Source of the DNA: Enterobacter phage fGh-Ecl02
Length of the DNA stretch: 64,000 nt
Reading direction: 5' to 3' (one strand)
Sequence record: ON212266.1
In this document: positions 19,575-23,567 of the stretch, piece after piece
How positions within the stretch are numbered: the stretch's first letter is position 1
How the letters are laid out: every line of letters begins with the position of its first letter
Notes under the pieces: generated by a model
Told to the model about the DNA's origin: nothing
The model's input: the letters and a program-made list of their open reading frames with translations, nothing else
Databases searched by the model: none
Made by a program: the position numbers and the translations under genes

Positions 19575-19912
19575 TGGTGTATCCTCAAATCAATGGATAG
19601 GGGTTTAACGGTTAAATTTTAAACCATTCTATCTCATTGAACAAATACAGAATGGGAAGGATGGACAAAAGAAAGCCGGATAAGGATATCCGGCTATGCC
19701 ACATCGATGGGATGGGTTGAAAGACTACACGCTTGCACTGGTACTACCCTATGGGAGAGCGCGTCAGGAGTCGAACCTGAAGTCGTCGACGTAGAGAAAG
19801 CTATTTGCATTTCACTATCCTCGCCGCGATTTTCTTAACTTCCTAAACACCCCGATTACGAGAGAGTCGACATGCACATCTTCTAACTCTTCAGGAAGTC
19901 ACGCTCGTAATT

Positions 19913-20001
19913 TGGCGGAAGGTGAAGGATTCGAACCTTCGGGGGCTAAAAGCCCCACTCGATTAGCAGTCGAGTCCCTTAAACCTCTCGGGCAACCTTC
20001 C
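19913..20001 (-). tRNA. tRNA-Ser (GCU), type II with long variable arm
   Basis: Minus strand ggaaggttgcccgagaggtttaagggactcgaCTGCTAAtcgagtggggcttttagcccccgaaggttcgaatccttcaccttccgcca. Anticodon loop cuGCUaa. T-loop GGTTCGAATCC. Confidence 0.7.
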
Positions 20002-20221
20002 AATTTGGACGGGCTTCACACCCGATTGAGCATTTGATCTGCTGTAGCCCAACTCCCCGCGCTTCTCAGCGCCGATTGGTTAACTGGCAACCAGTGCCTT
20101 CTGGTTCGATCTCCTGGAACTTTACAGGCTTTGCGCCCGACCATTTCTGGAAGTTGGGGCATCGTTTCCGATGTGGAGTCACCCCATTTTATACACAGCT
20201 GGCTGCAACGCTTACTGTGTT

Positions 20222-20305
20222 TGGTGTGAGTGGATGGATTCGAACCACCGCGCTGTTACGGGGAGATTTACAGTCTCCTGCATTCGACCGCTCTGCCACA
20301 CTCAC
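20222..20305 (-). tRNA. tRNA-Tyr (GUA), type II
   Basis: Minus strand ...ggagaCTGTAAAtctcc... with T-arm ggtggttcgaatccatc and acceptor gtgagtg/cactcac + A + CCA. Confidence 0.65.
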
Positions 20306-20562
20306 ATTTGGTCTGCCGCTGCGTGCTGGGCCACGCTCGAGGACATCGGCCATCCTTCCTCAGCTAATCCACGCAGCGGTAGATTTGTATCAGAGTGTCC
20401 GGTGTAGCAACCCGTGAGGTGCGCACTACTGTAGCCTCTACACTCTGAATTTGGTGGGCGCTACTATCGTCGTCTTCGGATTCCGTTCGGCTATTGGACA
20501 GAGGCTTGGAGCTTGTCGGTCGCGTACTTTATGCCTATTCACTTTCGTTCACACCCATTGTC

Positions 20563-20638
20563 TGGCGACGATGGCAGGACTTGAACCTGCGACATATGGA
20601 TTAACAGTCCACCGTTCTACCGACTGAACTACATCGTC
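20563..20638 (-). tRNA. tRNA-Asn (GUU)
   Basis: Minus strand gacgatgtagttcagtcggtagaacggtggaCTGTTAAtccatatgtcgcaggttcaagtcctgccatcgtcgcca, 76 nt, cloverleaf folds, close to E. coli tRNA-Asn. Confidence 0.85.
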
Positions 20639-20809
20639 TTGCAAATCACTATACCATATAAAGTTTATTGAACAAACATTTATTTTACAACAAACTGTAT
20701 TGGCGGGGTCTGAGGCTTTTCACCTCACCTGCTGGGTTTGGCCGCCCAGCCGTTCTCTATGAGGATTCACTGTCCGGACAGCTATCCATTAAACTATCGC
20801 CCCTCAATA

Positions 20810-20886
20810 TGGTGATCCTGATTGGGTTTGAACCAATGACCAATGAATTATGAGTTCACTGCTCTAACCGACTGAGCTACAGGACC
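20810..20886 (-). tRNA. tRNA with CAU anticodon (elongator Met or Ile2-lysidine type)
   Basis: Minus strand ggtcctgtagctcagtcggttagagcagtgaaCTCATAAttcattggtcattggttcaaacccaatcaggatcacca. G1-C72 pair, so not an initiator. The variable loop UGGUC resembles Ile2. Confidence 0.8.
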
Positions 20887-22997
20887 AAATTATTGTGTAC
20901 CAACCAAGGACTGTCAACCCTTTATCCCGTTTGTACATGATCAGTTCATGCATGCCTGTTTGTGCGCCTCACGGCATGCGCTTCTGTGGGTCTTTGGCCT
21001 GCACCATAGCCTCACCACAGGCGTTTATTTTTCCAGGGCTTTCCACTTGCAAGTCTTGACCATACAGGGATACGGGCTTGTAAGATCGGGTTGGACACAA
21101 CTTTGATGGCTCTGGTATTAAAGATCCCGCGTCACCCATAGACATGGTTTATAAATCCAGAGCCATCAAAGTTGCAACCAAATGTTACAACTCGCAGCTT
21201 CCATACAGAAGCAACTTGTCCTCTAACGCTCGGACCAAACGAGACTGGCTGGTTGATTCAGAGCCGCTGGTTGCTCCAGCAAGCATGGGTTGATAGCCCG
21301 ACAACATAGAATCACCCAAAGATGAAGAACACTCAGTGGTACAAGCCAGGGATACCAATTTCAGGTCCTTTGCGAGTTCTTTAAATGCTCTTCATTTTGT
21401 GAACTTGAGAATACTACGCCTGTCTCGGGTTTCCCCTTAGTTCGGCCTCCCAGTCCTCGCCGCGCCGGGTAGCTAACCCTGATGGCTCGTCTGCTACTGA
21501 GTTCTTCTTGGTGCCCACCAGTGTCCGGAATGTGTAGGCATCGCAATCTGCAAGGCATGGTCTATTTCGCCCAATGCTCTCTCAAGTTCACAAATCGAAG
21601 TGCCCTGACTCAACAGTATGGCCCAATATGCTGTTATCGTCCACCGGATTGGCCACCCACTTCGTAGATCAACCTTTGGGTTTAAGATAAATTGTCAAGG
21701 CACTTCGATTTGTGTGCCCTTCACCTGCCAGGGATCAGGGCTGATGGCAAGACTTCGCTCACATCTTTCAAGATACTCGTGAGAATATCCTCAAAGATGT
21801 GGAGCCGTTTTTAGGAGTCGAACCCAAATGCTTGTCAGTGCTGACCTTACGCACCATCTCACTCTTGAATGTTAACCCACTCCCAGCCCCACAACACTCA
21901 CTACGGTTAAGATTATTGCGTATGTTGTATGGTCTTGCTGGTCACAACTGAAAGGGCACTTAACAGAAGATAGGTCTGTTTGCCTCGGATGATTTCTCAG
22001 TAGCCTAAATGCCCTTACATGTTGTGTGCCCATTATTAATCACAGCGGGCCACTGCGCCGAATTTGGTGATGAGGAATCGGAAGACCTCACTGACTTATA
22101 GGCTGTTACGCCGCCATCAGAACTTCGGAATCATTAGCAGTTATTTGCTTGGTCAGTTTCTAAAAACCCGCAAAGTCACGCACAACGAAAACGAAAACCT
22201 GTTTGAGTCCTAAACGTACCTGTCTTAGTTCACAACGCTATGAGTGGCCAGGACTCAAACAGCTTGCCGTTCAGTGGGTTAACTATACTTTGTAACCCGT
22301 TATTGATAAAACCTTTTATTTTTGTTGGCGAGGGTGTCACCATCGATTTACCGGAACTTACGCATCCGGCCTCGCCTGTTGGTGCTCCTTCGAATCCGGG
22401 AAGATCAGTAGGAACTATGAATCAAGTTAATTCAACCAACAGGAACCTTGTTGCCCTTTGACGCAACATTATGAACCCTCTGTGAGGACTCATAATGTTG
22501 TCGGCGTGATGGAGATTAGCGCCCCCGACCTCCCCTTATACGTTGGTGTCGACTTGCCAACAGGGTGCTCTCTGATTCTGAGCTAATCACGCTACAACAG
22601 GGAGTTTCGTTCTCCGACGGTCAGTGCGTCCACCGACACCAGCGAGGTTGATATTACGCCTCTATTCGTCACGGTGCCCTGAGACTGGGCTTTCCTGGTT
22701 TCGGGTTCCAGCCCTACTCCCACCGCGCTATTCGCCTCGTGTTTAATACTTTACTACAGCCCAGCTAATTTGAAAAGTCCTCTCCTCTTTGTGCTACACT
22801 GCCCACAGCAGTGCGGACGAACCTTCACACAAAACCGGATGCGCCGAAGTGGGCGACTGTTTACCGGACTGATCAGGTAGACCCAGGAGAGTAAAGGTAA
22901 TCCCGATCAGGAGGATGAGGAGTAACATCATGTAAAACATAGTGTTCCCTCCCTTCCATGCAAATAACTTTACTGTAATTATTTATTGAATAAAGCG

Positions 22998-23567
22998 TTA
23001 TTTTAACACTTCTAACTTCACAACACGACGCAGAAGGTAAACATATTCACCAGCAGCTTCATGCGTCATATAATGGGTAGAAGGTGTGGAATGAGTGTTC
23101 TGGGTTTCTTTTAATCCAACACGTTCTGCCCAACCATTAATGGAGTTCCCATAGAAACCGATAATCGCGCCAAAATAAATGCGCTGGCTCTCTGGCTCTA
23201 AAACATAATTGACAGTGAAGCAAATGTCAGAACGAATAGACTCCAGTTTCATACCAACACGACCTTCAGAGAATTCGTTACGAACATATAAATGACGGAA
23301 GCGATCGCGCCGTGCTTGTGATGATTCTTCCAATTCTTGTCGAAGTGAAGAAGTTATGTCAATATTAAATGAAAATGTTGGATTTCGTAAATCAGAACGG
23401 GCCAACTCTAACGCAGATTCAATAACGCGACGGAAATTGATACTTTTACCTGTCAGGCGTTTCACTTCATCGGTGATTGTTCCAAAAGGGATTTTCGTGG
23501 CGTGTTCCCCTTCGTATTTTGCTAACAAAGGAATAATGTGTTTCATGATTGCTGTGTTAATGTGCAT
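22998..23567 (-). CDS. hypothetical protein 189 aa
   Basis: Last minus-strand ORF before the divergent region leading into the late module. Confidence 0.5.
   Translation of the reverse strand: MHINTAIMKHIIPLLAKYEGEHATKIPFGTITDEVKRLTGKSINFRRVIESALELARSDLRNPTFSFNIDITSSLRQELEESSQARRDRFRHLYVRNEFSEGRVGMKLESIRSDICFTVNYVLEPESQRIYFGAIIGFYGNSINGWAERVGLKETQNTHSTPSTHYMTHEAAGEYVYLLRRVVKLEVLK

Follow-up and report, generated by a model that had tools for sequence, protein, structure and literature searches.

Every functional tmRNA needs a tRNA-like domain, and tmRNA is thought to act only as one RNA or as two base-paired pieces, in which the tag template and a chargeable tRNA-like domain are brought together. 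In two-piece tmRNA, the coding and acceptor pieces are held together by an outer helix. We know of no mechanism by which a tag template could be loaded unless a covalent bond or a helix links it to a tRNA-like domain. T4 stable RNAs C and D (species 1 and 2) are small non-tRNA RNAs in a tRNA cluster, not known to carry a tag frame, and GOLLD and ROOL are large ornate RNAs beside tRNAs in phages and prophages. Phage-encoded tmRNAs are known from cluster C mycobacteriophages, Bacillus phage G and the marine phage Melnitz (two-piece) (PMC4131195, PMC9004378, PMC11915505), and mycobacteriophage DS6A carries a TLD-only tmRNA, a kind of molecule that inhibits tmRNA (PMC4131195, PMC11915505). A CCA-equivalent position is required of candidates by the tmRNA database pipeline, so message-only forms would be excluded from the database.

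Here we analyzed a 64,000-nt stretch (the window) of Enterobacter phage fGh-Ecl02 (ON212266.1), a Vi1/CBA120-like member of the Ackermannviridae. Positions 19.7–22.8 kb are one minus-strand cluster of non-coding RNA genes. Judged by its sequence, the unit at 22272–22026 is a tmRNA-like RNA that keeps the core of the tmRNA message part and has no recognizable tRNA part; no description of it or of its tags was found in the literature. Its importance lies in a tag template that is conserved, apparently under coding selection, without a tRNA-like domain. We consider it likely that the locus is a non-coding RNA cluster whose tmRNA-like RNA takes part in trans-translation.

A minus-strand cluster of non-coding RNA genes

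Along with four tRNAs, the cluster holds several tRNA-like RNAs of non-canonical form and long hairpins that covary; these parts, and the probable small gene next to them, are arranged as follows.

22794–22940, minus strand: probable small gene encoding 48 aa, hydrophobic, with GGAGGG upstream (DET7_201 in relatives' annotation)
22326–22592, minus strand: upstream block of tRNA-like units
22592–22504, minus strand: cloverleaf-like unit, acceptor GCGUGAU/AUCACGC, D arm GCUC/GAGC
22500–22464, minus strand: 17-bp hairpin in the upstream block
22443–22375, minus strand: Y-shaped junction in the upstream block
22376–22326, minus strand: acceptor-type stem GGCGAGG/CCUCGCC, last unit of the upstream block
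22282–22309, minus strand: promoter-like site of sigma-70 type, TTATCA-16-TATAGT, immediately preceding the tmRNA-like unit
22272–22026, minus strand: tmRNA-like element (tag template, helix-5-like hairpin, pseudoknot and P4)
21943–22026, minus strand: long irregular hairpin CACAAC-A-GG-U-AAG(G/A)GCA ... UGC(C/U)CUU-UC(A/C)-GUUGUG, distal part variable
21799–21892, minus strand: tRNA-like unit TL-1, T arm UUGGG-UUCGACU-CCUAA at 21827–21811, encoded CCA at 21802–21800
21757–21805, minus strand: 21-bp hairpin I5, 5 compensatory pairs, z = −6.5
21398–21713, minus strand: two nested structured domains, closed by I3 (21710–21694/21609–21593) and I2 (21592–21580/21410–21398)
21250–21318, minus strand: mini tRNA-like unit, a 69-nt three-way junction ending ...UGAAUCA-A-CCA
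21098–21175, minus strand: hairpin I1, the 18-bp repeat extended to ~22 bp, 5 compensatory pairs, 3/260 unpaired cells
20889–21099, minus strand: structured domain closed by 21099–21089/20905–20894, overlapping the promoter-like site before tRNA-Met
20917–20889, minus strand: strong promoter-like site TTGACA-17-AATAAT, directly before tRNA-Met
19674–20886, minus strand: rest of the cluster, with tRNA-Met, Asn, Tyr and Ser and tRNA-like units at 20803–20701 and ~19830–19735
19695–19674, minus strand: intrinsic terminator ending the cluster

The tRNAs and the flanking genes all lie on the minus strand, so the region is upstream of the tRNAs in transcription and not downstream, as the preliminary description had it. 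In every family the RNA strand has the orientation of the tRNAs; in 14 of 19 alignment windows the consensus fold is more stable in the minus sense, and N4-like copies carry a terminator at their end on the RNA strand (minus sense here). The suggestion that the region is co-transcribed with the tRNAs is right only in part, since the cluster contains internal promoter-like sites (22309–22282 and 20917–20889). The former is one of three copies of an AAAATAA..TTTAT(C/T)CAATAA motif (family D2).

No ORF exceeds 73 aa on either strand in 20900–22790, in line with the earlier limit of 75 aa, and none of the 16 ORFs of 30–73 aa is intact across 13 related phages, being broken by frame-shifting indels and stops. 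The wider claim that 20900–22960 holds no credible ORF stands for 20887–22793, where no ORF is conserved, and fails for 22794–22940, which probably is a real small gene.

Hairpins across the region are far more stable than chance and are kept by compensatory changes. The 18-bp perfect inverted repeat already described (21098–21115/21157–21174, 41-nt loop) is exact and belongs to a 30-nt arm pair; its hairpin I1 folds at −41.3 kcal/mol (z = −8.5). Three other repeats are real, with amended limits: the 11-bp repeat placed at 22465–22500 is 17 bp long (22464–22480/22484–22500, z = −6.7), the ggcgagg/cctcgcc pair lies at 22327–22333/22370–22376 instead of within 22291–22340, and the repeat near tRNA-Tyr (20312–20325/20370–20383) adjoins that gene but does not flank it. 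None of these repeats is followed by a terminator-like T-run, as had been noted. Further long hairpins had been missed (22272–22189, 21805–21757, 21713–21590 and 22026–21943; z −3.1 to −6.5). The hairpins are conserved in relatives, and those between units are most likely processing or stabilizing elements of multi-unit transcripts.

ARAGORN and Rfam return only the four known tRNAs in the window, with no ordinary extra tRNA in 20.9–22.8 kb; as the hairpins are conserved too, the outcome that the preliminary description named as refuting it did not occur. The units at 21892–21799, 21318–21250, 22592–22504 and 22376–22326 show partial tRNA features. The order T arm, 7 nt, N, CCA in TL-1 is that of the four real tRNAs. 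TL-1 is chimeric here, its 3′ half occurring in all Ackermannviridae and its 5′ half being shared with Skatevirus SEzh_1. Its minimum-free-energy fold closes GUGGGGCUG (21892–21884) with CGGCUCCAC (21807–21799) (z = −3.1); this candidate GUGGGGCUG/CGGCUCCAC helix, which lacks comparative support, matches the E. coli tmRNA acceptor stem in 6/7 pairs, including G3·U70 and A73. In EP75-type relatives, the tip of I5 bears a tRNA-like body with a T arm (GCGGG-UUCGAGU-CCCGC). Closing stems of the nested domains show 3 (I3, z = −5.9) and 1 (I2) compensatory pairs, and their inner helices 2–3 each with 0–1 unpaired cells. In the 69-nt junction, 6/9 pairs of the closing helix have changed on both sides (3/117 unpaired cells); in the Klebsiella N4-like phage FBKp27, a copy with 81.5% identity has tRNA-Gln on one side and a terminator on the other. 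The hairpin at 21943–22026 (z = −3.1) covaries among phages (AAGAGCA/UGCUCUU, AAGGGCA/UGCCCUU, AAUUGCA/UGCAAUU) and is present in 1–3 copies per locus in C1-like phages and the E. coli prophage. Upstream, 22643–22394 is 92–100% identical across Kuttervirus, Agtrevirus, Taipeivirus and Serratia phages; the unit 22376–22326, annotated as tRNA-Ala in SeKF_19, has in Det7 and SeKF_19 a T arm (GUGUGG-UUCGAUU-CCACAC) lost here by deletion.

Among the explanations proposed earlier for the region, structured non-coding RNAs and tRNA-derived elements both apply, side by side. An intron remnant is not supported, with no group I or group II match in Rfam even at E = 10, nor is a replication origin, with no AT-rich stretch, iteron or skew switch.

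Several other candidates were rejected. A plus-strand 30-aa ORF through the conserved core (22009–22101; ~70 aa in C1) is broken in relatives and opposed by the strand evidence. The 'repeat_region' of some Kuttervirus records, taken as terminal repeats, consists only of 21-bp features in genomes merely opened here. Y RNA, riboswitch, small ribozyme, RNase P RNA, 6S and type III antitoxin mimic gave no Rfam match (E up to 10) and no sequence resemblance.

The tmRNA-like element and its tag frame

From 5′ to 3′ on the RNA strand, the element is built of the following parts.

22189–22272, minus strand: long 5′ hairpin I4, 22-bp stem, 2 compensatory and 6 one-sided changes, 6/308 unpaired cells
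22186–22199, minus strand: conserved leader GGUUUUCGUUUUCG, its core GUUUUC invariant in 35/35 copies
22144–22174, minus strand: hairpin P1 upstream of the resume codon, helices 22174–22170/22148–22144 and 22168–22165/22154–22151
22106–22138, minus strand: tag frame GCU AAU GAU UCC GAA GUU CUG AUG GCG GCG UAA, reading ANDSEVLMAA and stop
22091–22120, minus strand: helix-5-like hairpin formed by tag codons 7–10 and downstream sequence, stop codon in the apical loop
22058–22090, minus strand: H-type pseudoknot, stem 1 22090–22086/22075–22071 (UGAGG/CCUCA), stem 2 22081–22078/22061–22058 (CCGA/UCGG)
22026–22053, minus strand: hairpin P4, its 15-nt loop conserved as G(C/G)UGUGAUUAAUAA(U/G)

The tag frame opens on an alanine resume codon without a start codon, ~7 codons after an in-frame stop, and the Rfam tmRNA models place it in register with their own tag region. 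Its length is exactly 10 codons in 35/35 copies. Across the 17 distinct coding sequences, position 1 is always alanine, position 10 is always alanine with all four alanine codons in use, and position 11 is always a stop, with TAA, TGA and TAG all used. Frame length, terminal alanine and stop are thus kept while the codons vary, which argues that the tag is, or has been, translated; if so, the RNA would take part in trans-translation. RNA-level constraints could be a partial cause of the conserved AND and frame.

Since MAFFT mis-registers helices P1 and H5 between types, sequence types were folded separately, and the helix-5-like hairpin appeared in each of the 16, on stems as different as CUGAU/GUCAG, CUGG/CCAG, GAGCA/UGCUC and UGCAA/UUGCA. 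In the pseudoknot and P4 core together, 98.9% of 455 cells pair, versus 81.6% in shuffles (0/500 reach this value) and at most 62% in slid controls, with a covariation score of 0.469 versus 0.172. Pairs changed on both sides number 3 in stem 1 and 2 in stem 2 of the pseudoknot, where G·U pairs occur in the minus sense only, and 3/4 in the P4 core. The P4 loop is carried on at least four different stems: GUGGCCC/GGGCAC here, GCGGGAG/CUCCCGC in Det7-type phages, UCCCUGA/UCAGGGA in Skatevirus and GCCCAC/GUGGGC in Felixounavirus. When the window was searched for a pairing partner, no sequence complementary to this loop rose above chance.

On the 5′ side, the A-rich box AAUAACU directly follows P1. 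When the Felixounavirus copy is aligned to the standard tmRNA model, P1 falls on the pseudoknot-1 helix and the box on the model's AAAAAAUAAuU; the upstream element is seen as a hairpin only, and PK3 and PK4 are not present. Hairpin I4 (z = −3.9; G·U pairs on the minus-sense strand in relatives) aligns to the outer helix of Rfam tmRNA_permuted, and has 30 nt where the model has a tRNA-domain insert of 111 nt. In two-piece tmRNA genes, this position is taken by the helix enclosing the tRNA-like domain. The leader aligns to the 3′ strand of that outer helix and is the predicted transcript start in C1-like, Felix-like and Vibrio-phage copies; strong promoters lie directly before the conserved 5′ end in C1 (TTGACA-17-TAGATT), in Felixounavirus (TTGACA-17-TATAGT) and also in Vibrio phage pYD38-A.

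All Rfam matches at the element are to tmRNA families on the RNA strand, and all are sub-threshold. tmRNA_permuted (RF04321) scores 19.5 bits here against a gathering threshold of 47, and 26–31 bits in other phages, 31 bits being the best of any copy. alpha_tmRNA matches at 27.2 bits (E = 1e-4) and beta_tmRNA at 23.8 bits (E = 4e-4), while the Felixounavirus copy matches positions 56–295 of the standard model (E = 2e-4). At gathering thresholds, Rfam reports only the four tRNAs in the whole window, and neither the window nor any of the ~40 related loci scanned yields a tmRNA in ARAGORN.

No alanine-type tRNA-like domain is detectable in cis with the core, and a search of the whole 46.7-kb genome of phage C1 found none. 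The two-piece arrangement is not seen either: the conserved 5′ end is (A/G)GUUUUCG with no GGGG-type strand, and no family has an acceptor piece upstream of the core, the promoter abutting the 5′ end in C1. Two permissive acceptor/T-arm scans returned mostly noise, and only a strict scan for G3·U70/A73/CCA plus a T arm was used; it found this combination in the Felixounavirus locus alone. There, the core is followed by an 82-nt tRNA-like RNA with G3·U70, A73 and CCA, a candidate partner. A second candidate, tRNA-shaped, comes after the core in the E. coli 55989 prophage, and its alignment to the tmRNA model is that of a TLD-only molecule (E = 4.5e-6). Neighboring tRNA-like units vary by family, with alanine identity in the Felixounavirus unit only.

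The core is widespread. It occurs in 670/50,697 phage records (~1.3% of deposited phage genomes) and, by BLAST, in 137/5,426 E. coli genomes. It lies without annotation in Ackermannviridae, ~46-kb siphoviruses, N4-like Gamaleyavirus, Felixounavirus, Chaseviridae and E. coli lambdoid prophages, its carriers including relatives of Vi1/CBA120, Felix O1 and the N4-like G7C as well as lambdoid prophages of pathogenic E. coli. The 17 distinct versions, from at least six unrelated phage groups and from E. coli lambdoid prophages, all keep the ten-codon frame. With one genome per bacterial species, an exact-pattern scan hit a single contig, a count that understates presence in prophages.

Possible roles in trans-translation and alternatives

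That the RNA is a phage-specified tag template for ribosome rescue by host tmRNA–SmpB is a serious possibility, a little short of probable. The template would act together with a separately folded tRNA-like partner encoded alongside, or with host tmRNA itself. A split trans-translation system, in which a tag-template RNA without a tRNA-like domain would be loaded non-covalently on stalled ribosomes, is a more tentative and somewhat doubtful proposal. Here the template would dock to host tmRNA–SmpB or pair with a separate phage tRNA-like RNA, and rescued host or phage proteins would receive the phage-specified tag in place of the host ANDENYALAA.

The RNA might instead be a decoy. By mimicking the tmRNA message part it could titrate a host factor (ribosomal protein S1, SmpB's second contacts or RNase R), or it could pair with host tmRNA through its 5′ AGUUUUCGU; either form would damp or block host trans-translation in infection. 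The failure to find a tRNA-like domain, in cis or anywhere in phage C1, speaks for a decoy, early-type sigma-70 promoters precede the element in three families, and the TLD-only tmRNA of DS6A offers a precedent in the opposite direction (PMC4131195, PMC11915505). The invariant leader also contains AGUUUUCGU, the exact complement of ACGAAAACU in tag codons 3–6 of E. coli tmRNA. This complementarity may be chance: it spans 9 nt, with a chance expectation of ~0.05 after allowing for the number of conserved motifs inspected, and the leader is sequestered in the I4 stem in Ackermannviridae. Whole-length RNAduplex prediction between the element and E. coli tmRNA was uninformative. A decoy has no need for a ten-codon frame, for alanine at position 10 written in four codons or for a stop at position 11 written in all three, and we judge both forms, taken together, unlikely.

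It is improbable that the units are decaying tRNA or tmRNA gene remnants without present function, their hairpins left by internal deletions. Some are indeed truncated relative to relatives (the T arm of 22376–22326 is deleted, the tip body of 21805–21757 is found elsewhere and TL-1 is chimeric), ARAGORN rejects all of them, and the region ranges from 1.4 to 3.1 kb in relatives. Decay, however, fits poorly with blocks 92–100% identical between genera, compensatory changes in nearly every helix, dedicated promoters ahead of the element and the same core, frame intact, in at least six unrelated phage groups.

Several very small proteins, missed or inconsistently called by gene callers, are a very remote prospect: databases do carry 30–65-aa 'hypothetical proteins' here on both strands, but these differ in position and strand among near-identical genomes, 0/16 ORFs survive in relatives and substitutions track base-pairing, not codons. 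A DNA-level element (replication origin, packaging site or recombination hotspot), suggested by the mosaic exchange of modules between phages and by deposited genomes opened in the region, is just as hard to credit given the absence of an AT-rich unwinding stretch, iterons or tandem repeats, a GC content like that of the flanks, 'repeat_region' features of only 21 bp, and a G·U strand asymmetry and reading frame that are properties of RNA.

If the RNA is a tag template, it would represent a new trans-translation architecture and give viruses a means of acting on ribosome rescue and ClpXP-directed proteolysis; a split system would amount to a tmRNA of new architecture and a novel viral route to the reprogramming of ribosome rescue and protein quality control. 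Were it a decoy, phages would widely carry an RNA that inhibits a drug-target system. In practical terms, the cluster goes unannotated in hundreds of phage genomes, many of them put forward for therapy or biocontrol, where current pipelines leave it blank or fill it with spurious small ORFs.

Comparison with known systems

By description, T4 RNAs C and D resemble the units here in lying in tRNA orientation inside a phage tRNA cluster, some with tRNA-like 3′ ends; T4-like phages were not among the BLAST matches. GOLLD and ROOL share the character of a long, highly structured non-coding RNA adjoining phage tRNA genes. Neither has an Rfam match in the window, and the 1.9 kb here is an array of separate 50–250-nt modules with internal promoters, unlike their one large fold.

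Bacterial tmRNA (SsrA, RF00023) likewise has an alanine resume codon after an A-rich box without a start codon, a 10-codon tag that starts with AND and ends in alanine (ANDENYALAA in E. coli, ANDSEVLMAA here), a hairpin before the tag, a stop in the helix 5 loop and a pseudoknot after helix 5. Unlike it, the element has no 5′ acceptor strand, D-loop analogue or nested T arm/acceptor/CCA, and it has one downstream pseudoknot instead of three in a core of ~180–250 nt.

The coding piece of two-piece/permuted tmRNA (RF01849 alpha, RF01850 beta, RF04321) gives the best-scoring models. Translation of the RF01850 consensus gives a tag (ANDE.F..AA) similar to those of the phages, and the leader GUUUUC aligns to the outer-helix strand that, in the permuted models, lies just before the tag region. 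In contrast, the models' tRNA-domain insert of 67–182 nt corresponds to 1–59 nt in the phage copies, the phage RNA has neither an acceptor 5′ strand at its start nor an upstream acceptor piece, and the hosts here (Enterobacteriaceae) have one-piece tmRNA.

The known phage tmRNAs likewise show phages encoding the trans-translation RNA in whole or in part, and reduced forms exist (DS6A). Those RNAs, however, are complete (found by ARAGORN) or TLD-only, whereas here the message domain is kept and the tRNA-like domain is missing or detached.

The ORF-free region and its strand

The four tRNA genes (Ser, Tyr, Asn and Met; 19913–20886, ARAGORN and Rfam) and the genes flanking the region all lie on the minus strand, so the region is upstream of the tRNAs in the direction of transcription and not downstream, as first described. 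Matches to 19600–23000 came from 363 phage records, the best being Ackermannviridae at 92–95% identity (among them Salmonella phages Det7 and SeKF_19 and Escherichia phage YX22). Alignment with 13 relatives (Kuttervirus, Agtrevirus, Taipeivirus and Serratia phages) disclosed a mosaic of blocks 92–100% identical across genera alternating with wholly substituted ones. A 250-nt block including a cloverleaf-like tRNA mimic (22643–22394, minus strand) retains 92–100% identity among Salmonella, Klebsiella and Serratia Ackermannviridae, against just 78–92% for the adjoining small ORF in the same alignment.

The preliminary description of 20900–22960 as free of credible ORFs stands for 20887–22793. 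No ORF longer than 73 aa occurs in 20900–22790, and 0 of 16 ORFs of 30–73 aa remain intact across the 13 relatives, being disrupted by stops and by indels whose lengths are not divisible by three; deposited annotations show short hypothetical proteins at positions and on strands that are inconsistent between near-identical genomes. It fails at the far edge:

22794–22940, minus strand: 48-aa ORF with Shine–Dalgarno GGAGGG upstream; MFYMMLLLILLIGITFTLLGLPDQSGKQSPTSAHPVLCEGSSALLWAV; hypothetical DET7_201 in relatives

The product is hydrophobic with a clear membrane-spanning N-terminus; the ORF, which borders the RNA cluster, probably does encode a small membrane protein and sets the limit of the ORF-free stretch.

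The inverted repeats reported earlier all exist, with the coordinates of one pair in error, and hairpin stability far exceeds that of shuffled sequence (z = −8.5, −6.7, −6.5, −5.9, −3.9). As proposed, they are not simple terminators, none having a terminator-like T-run after it. The sole intrinsic terminator detected is:

19695–19674, minus strand: intrinsic terminator closing the tRNA cluster

For 14 of 19 windows of the family alignment, the minus-sense consensus fold was the more stable (in one, −54.5 versus −27.1 kcal/mol in the plus sense), and almost all minus-sense helices carry compensatory changes in relatives, with few unpaired cells. GC skew of the plus strand is negative all along 19.8–23.2 kb. 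Two of the options originally listed, structured ncRNA and tRNA-derived elements, are borne out by these covarying helices, a conserved RNA core and a chain of non-canonical tRNA-like units. A replication origin is unsupported since no AT-rich stretch, iterons or tandem repeats were found in the region, an intron remnant is likewise unsupported, and a junk reading was rejected. The region is an RNA gene cluster, neither junk, origin nor intron.

A tmRNA-like core with a tag frame

Sensitive BLAST matched parts of the region to phages unrelated to this one. Every match falls in an unannotated gap, mostly beside tRNA genes of the same orientation; the chief shared piece is 22005–22192. A pattern scan of IMG/VR, together with related loci, yielded 35 distinct copies of this core, each reading on the minus strand GC(A/U) AA(C/U) GA(U/C), seven codons and a stop. 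Its elements in the window are:

22138–22106, minus strand: tag frame, GCU AAU GAU UCC GAA GUU CUG AUG GCG GCG UAA = ANDSEVLMAA
22090–22058, minus strand: H-type pseudoknot, next after a helix-5-like hairpin
22053–22026, minus strand: hairpin P4, after the pseudoknot, with a 15-nt loop G(C/G)UGUGAUUAAUAA(U/G)

No in-frame AUG for the tag frame occurs in the copies examined, and most have an in-frame stop ~7 codons 5′ of it. Across 17 distinct coding sequences, positions 1 and 2 are invariably Ala and Asn (two codons each), position 10 is invariably Ala with all four codons used, and position 11 is invariably a stop, with TAA, TGA and TAG all used. Such a pattern is what marks a tmRNA tag template. 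All sequence types, on differing stems, fold tag codons 7–10 and the bases after them into the helix-5-like hairpin, whose loop holds the stop. In the helix-5/tag segment (22143–22094; aligned related loci L001–L037), otherwise similar Ackermannviridae carry two sharply different alleles, one encoding ANDSEVLMAA (stem CUGAU/GUCAG) and the other ANDNTFLAVA (stem CUGG/CCAG). Identity is ~60% between alleles and 98–100% within one, which looks like cassette exchange, not gradual divergence.

The P4 loop is preserved on at least four unrelated stems. Across the pseudoknot stems and P4 (three helices), 98.9% of cells pair versus 81.6% in shuffles (0/500), and both sides change in 8 of 13 pairs; slid controls reached at most 62%. 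No Rfam match at the core reached the gathering score. All sub-threshold matches there (nine independent loci) are to tmRNA families and lie on the RNA strand, their alignments keeping the resume codon, the tag and the stop in register: tmRNA_permuted (19.5 bits for the window copy, 26–31 bits in other loci), alpha_tmRNA (27.2 bits, E = 1e-4), beta_tmRNA (23.8 bits, E = 4e-4) and, on a Felixounavirus copy, the standard tmRNA model (positions 56–295, E = 2e-4). These data show a structured RNA gene, kept in different phage families, that comprises a tmRNA core and a tag frame under coding-type constraint.

tRNA-like units and promoters

ARAGORN detected no tmRNA in the window or ~40 related loci scanned, and phage C1 gave no tRNA, tRNA-like or second tmRNA match across its whole 46.7-kb genome. 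In several families a tRNA-shaped RNA lies downstream of the core. The sole alanine-type candidate found is an 82-nt D-armless unit 3′ of the core in Felixounavirus humlepung, with G3·U70, A73 and CCA. In the E. coli 55989 prophage, the core is followed by a five-armed tRNA-like RNA without G3·U70 or CCA, aligned by the tmRNA model as a molecule consisting only of the tRNA-like domain (TLD; E = 4.5e-6). The window carries:

21892–21799, minus strand: tRNA-like unit downstream of the core, with T arm and encoded CCA

Its 5′ half is from a module also present in a Skatevirus, and its MFE fold pairs GUGGGGCUG with CGGCUCCAC, a helix much like the E. coli tmRNA acceptor stem, in a non-canonical geometry with no comparative support.

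In a Vibrio phage, a Felixounavirus and the C1-like phages, a strong sigma-70-type promoter lies directly 5′ of (A/G)GUUUUCG, the conserved motif at the 5′ end of the core, its spacing predicting a transcript start at or just before this motif; the window unit has a weaker promoter-like site upstream. A 24-nt motif, TTTATTGAA.AAA...TTATTTTA, occurs three times (22982–23005, 22299–22322 and 20664–20687; plus-strand coordinates). Read on the minus strand, the copies present an A/T-rich upstream element and −35-like box, then a TA(T/A)AGT −10 box, and look like a phage-specific promoter class for the small ORF, the tmRNA-like unit and tRNA-Asn.

The remainder of the region is a series of non-canonical tRNA-like units and long hairpins, with two further units between and beyond the tRNAs:

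22592–22504, minus strand: cloverleaf-like unit within a block 92–100% identical across genera
22443–22375, minus strand: Y-shaped junction
22376–22326, minus strand: acceptor-type stem; its T arm, present in Det7 and SeKF_19 (annotated tRNA-Ala), is deleted in the window
22026–21943, minus strand: irregular long hairpin with conserved mismatch and bulge, repeated within loci of other phages
21318–21250, minus strand: 69-nt three-way junction with ACCA end and six compensatory pairs
20701–20803, minus strand: tRNA-like unit between real tRNAs
~19735–19830, minus strand: tRNA-like unit after the real tRNAs

Klebsiella phage FBKp27 has a copy of the 21318–21250 junction at its tRNA operon end. 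Of the last two units, one ends ...CCUCAGACCCCGCCA; the other ends UCCC and contains a perfect T arm (UCAGG-UUCGACU-CCUGA). Det7 carries a different unit right after tRNA-Ser, annotated as a pseudo-tRNA possibly containing a 15-bp intron, with no counterpart at the window position. In some relatives the tip of hairpin 21805–21757 bears a T-arm-carrying body, so the long 'perfect' hairpins include extended acceptor-type stems that have lost their tRNA-like tops. A single locus can carry as many as three hairpins of the 22026–21943 type (related loci L004, L013, L014, L021 and the 55989 prophage). Their distal parts are unrelated, some containing T-arm-like sequences, on a common base (CACAAC / A·C mismatch / GG / bulged U / AAGAGCA versus UGCUCUU-UCC-GUUGUG); these hairpins may have in common a function as sites of processing or protein binding. 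In other enterobacterial phage families, unannotated stretches of 1.4–2.5 kb in or beside tRNA clusters of phages CU10EC (L044) and DE16 (L045) and N4-like phages (L005/L022) share short modules with window 21849–21960 and 21942–22027. Such RNA arrays may be a general, overlooked trait of virulent enterophages.

Possible roles, distribution and relation to known tmRNAs

Because no TLD is joined to the core, it must either use a separate TLD or act as a mimic. We tentatively place its use as a tag template a little short of an even chance. Translation of the tag, which we infer, would bring the RNA into trans-translation, where a neighbouring phage tRNA-like RNA or host tmRNA–SmpB could provide the separate TLD. 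The conserved 5′ leader AGUUUUCGU is invariant and the exact complement of host tag codons 3–6, a pairing that could dock the core RNA to host tmRNA; such complementarity has a chance expectation close to 0.05, and the 5′ hairpin of Ackermannviridae buries the leader. Action as a decoy, in which the core mimics the message part of tmRNA and titrates factors that bind it, would fit the missing TLD and appears unlikely; the remaining probability falls to some role other than template or decoy.

The core is present in 670 of 50,697 phage records, almost never annotated, spanning Ackermannviridae, Gamaleyavirus, Felixounavirus, Chaseviridae and ~46-kb siphoviruses (Deseoctovirus, Skatevirus, Roufvirus). 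Among 5,426 complete E. coli genomes, 137 have it in lambdoid prophages, with O26 strains among the matches listed. In the 55989 lambdoid prophage (NC_011748.1, 2691526–2691683 and flanks), the core has the Q antiterminator gene on one side and the lysis genes (holin gene) on the other, and a late-promoter/terminator-like leader precedes it. Stx phages have tRNA genes at this position.

The observation is real and more interesting than originally described. No similar RNA was found in the phage tmRNA literature examined, nor the core tag peptides in the literature searched; the tmRNA database pipeline discards candidates without a CCA-equivalent position. The E. coli tmRNA, whose sequence was retrieved for comparison, has the tag ANDENYALAA, versus ANDSEVLMAA in the window. 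Whereas Rfam tmRNA models contain a tRNA-domain insert of 67–182 nt, phage cores have 1–59 nt in its place, and the window 5′ hairpin (22272–22189) aligns to the tmRNA_permuted helix that normally encloses the tRNA domain. Known phage forms are complete tmRNAs and a TLD-only form; this cluster has as its centrepiece a reduced tmRNA of a form not described before.
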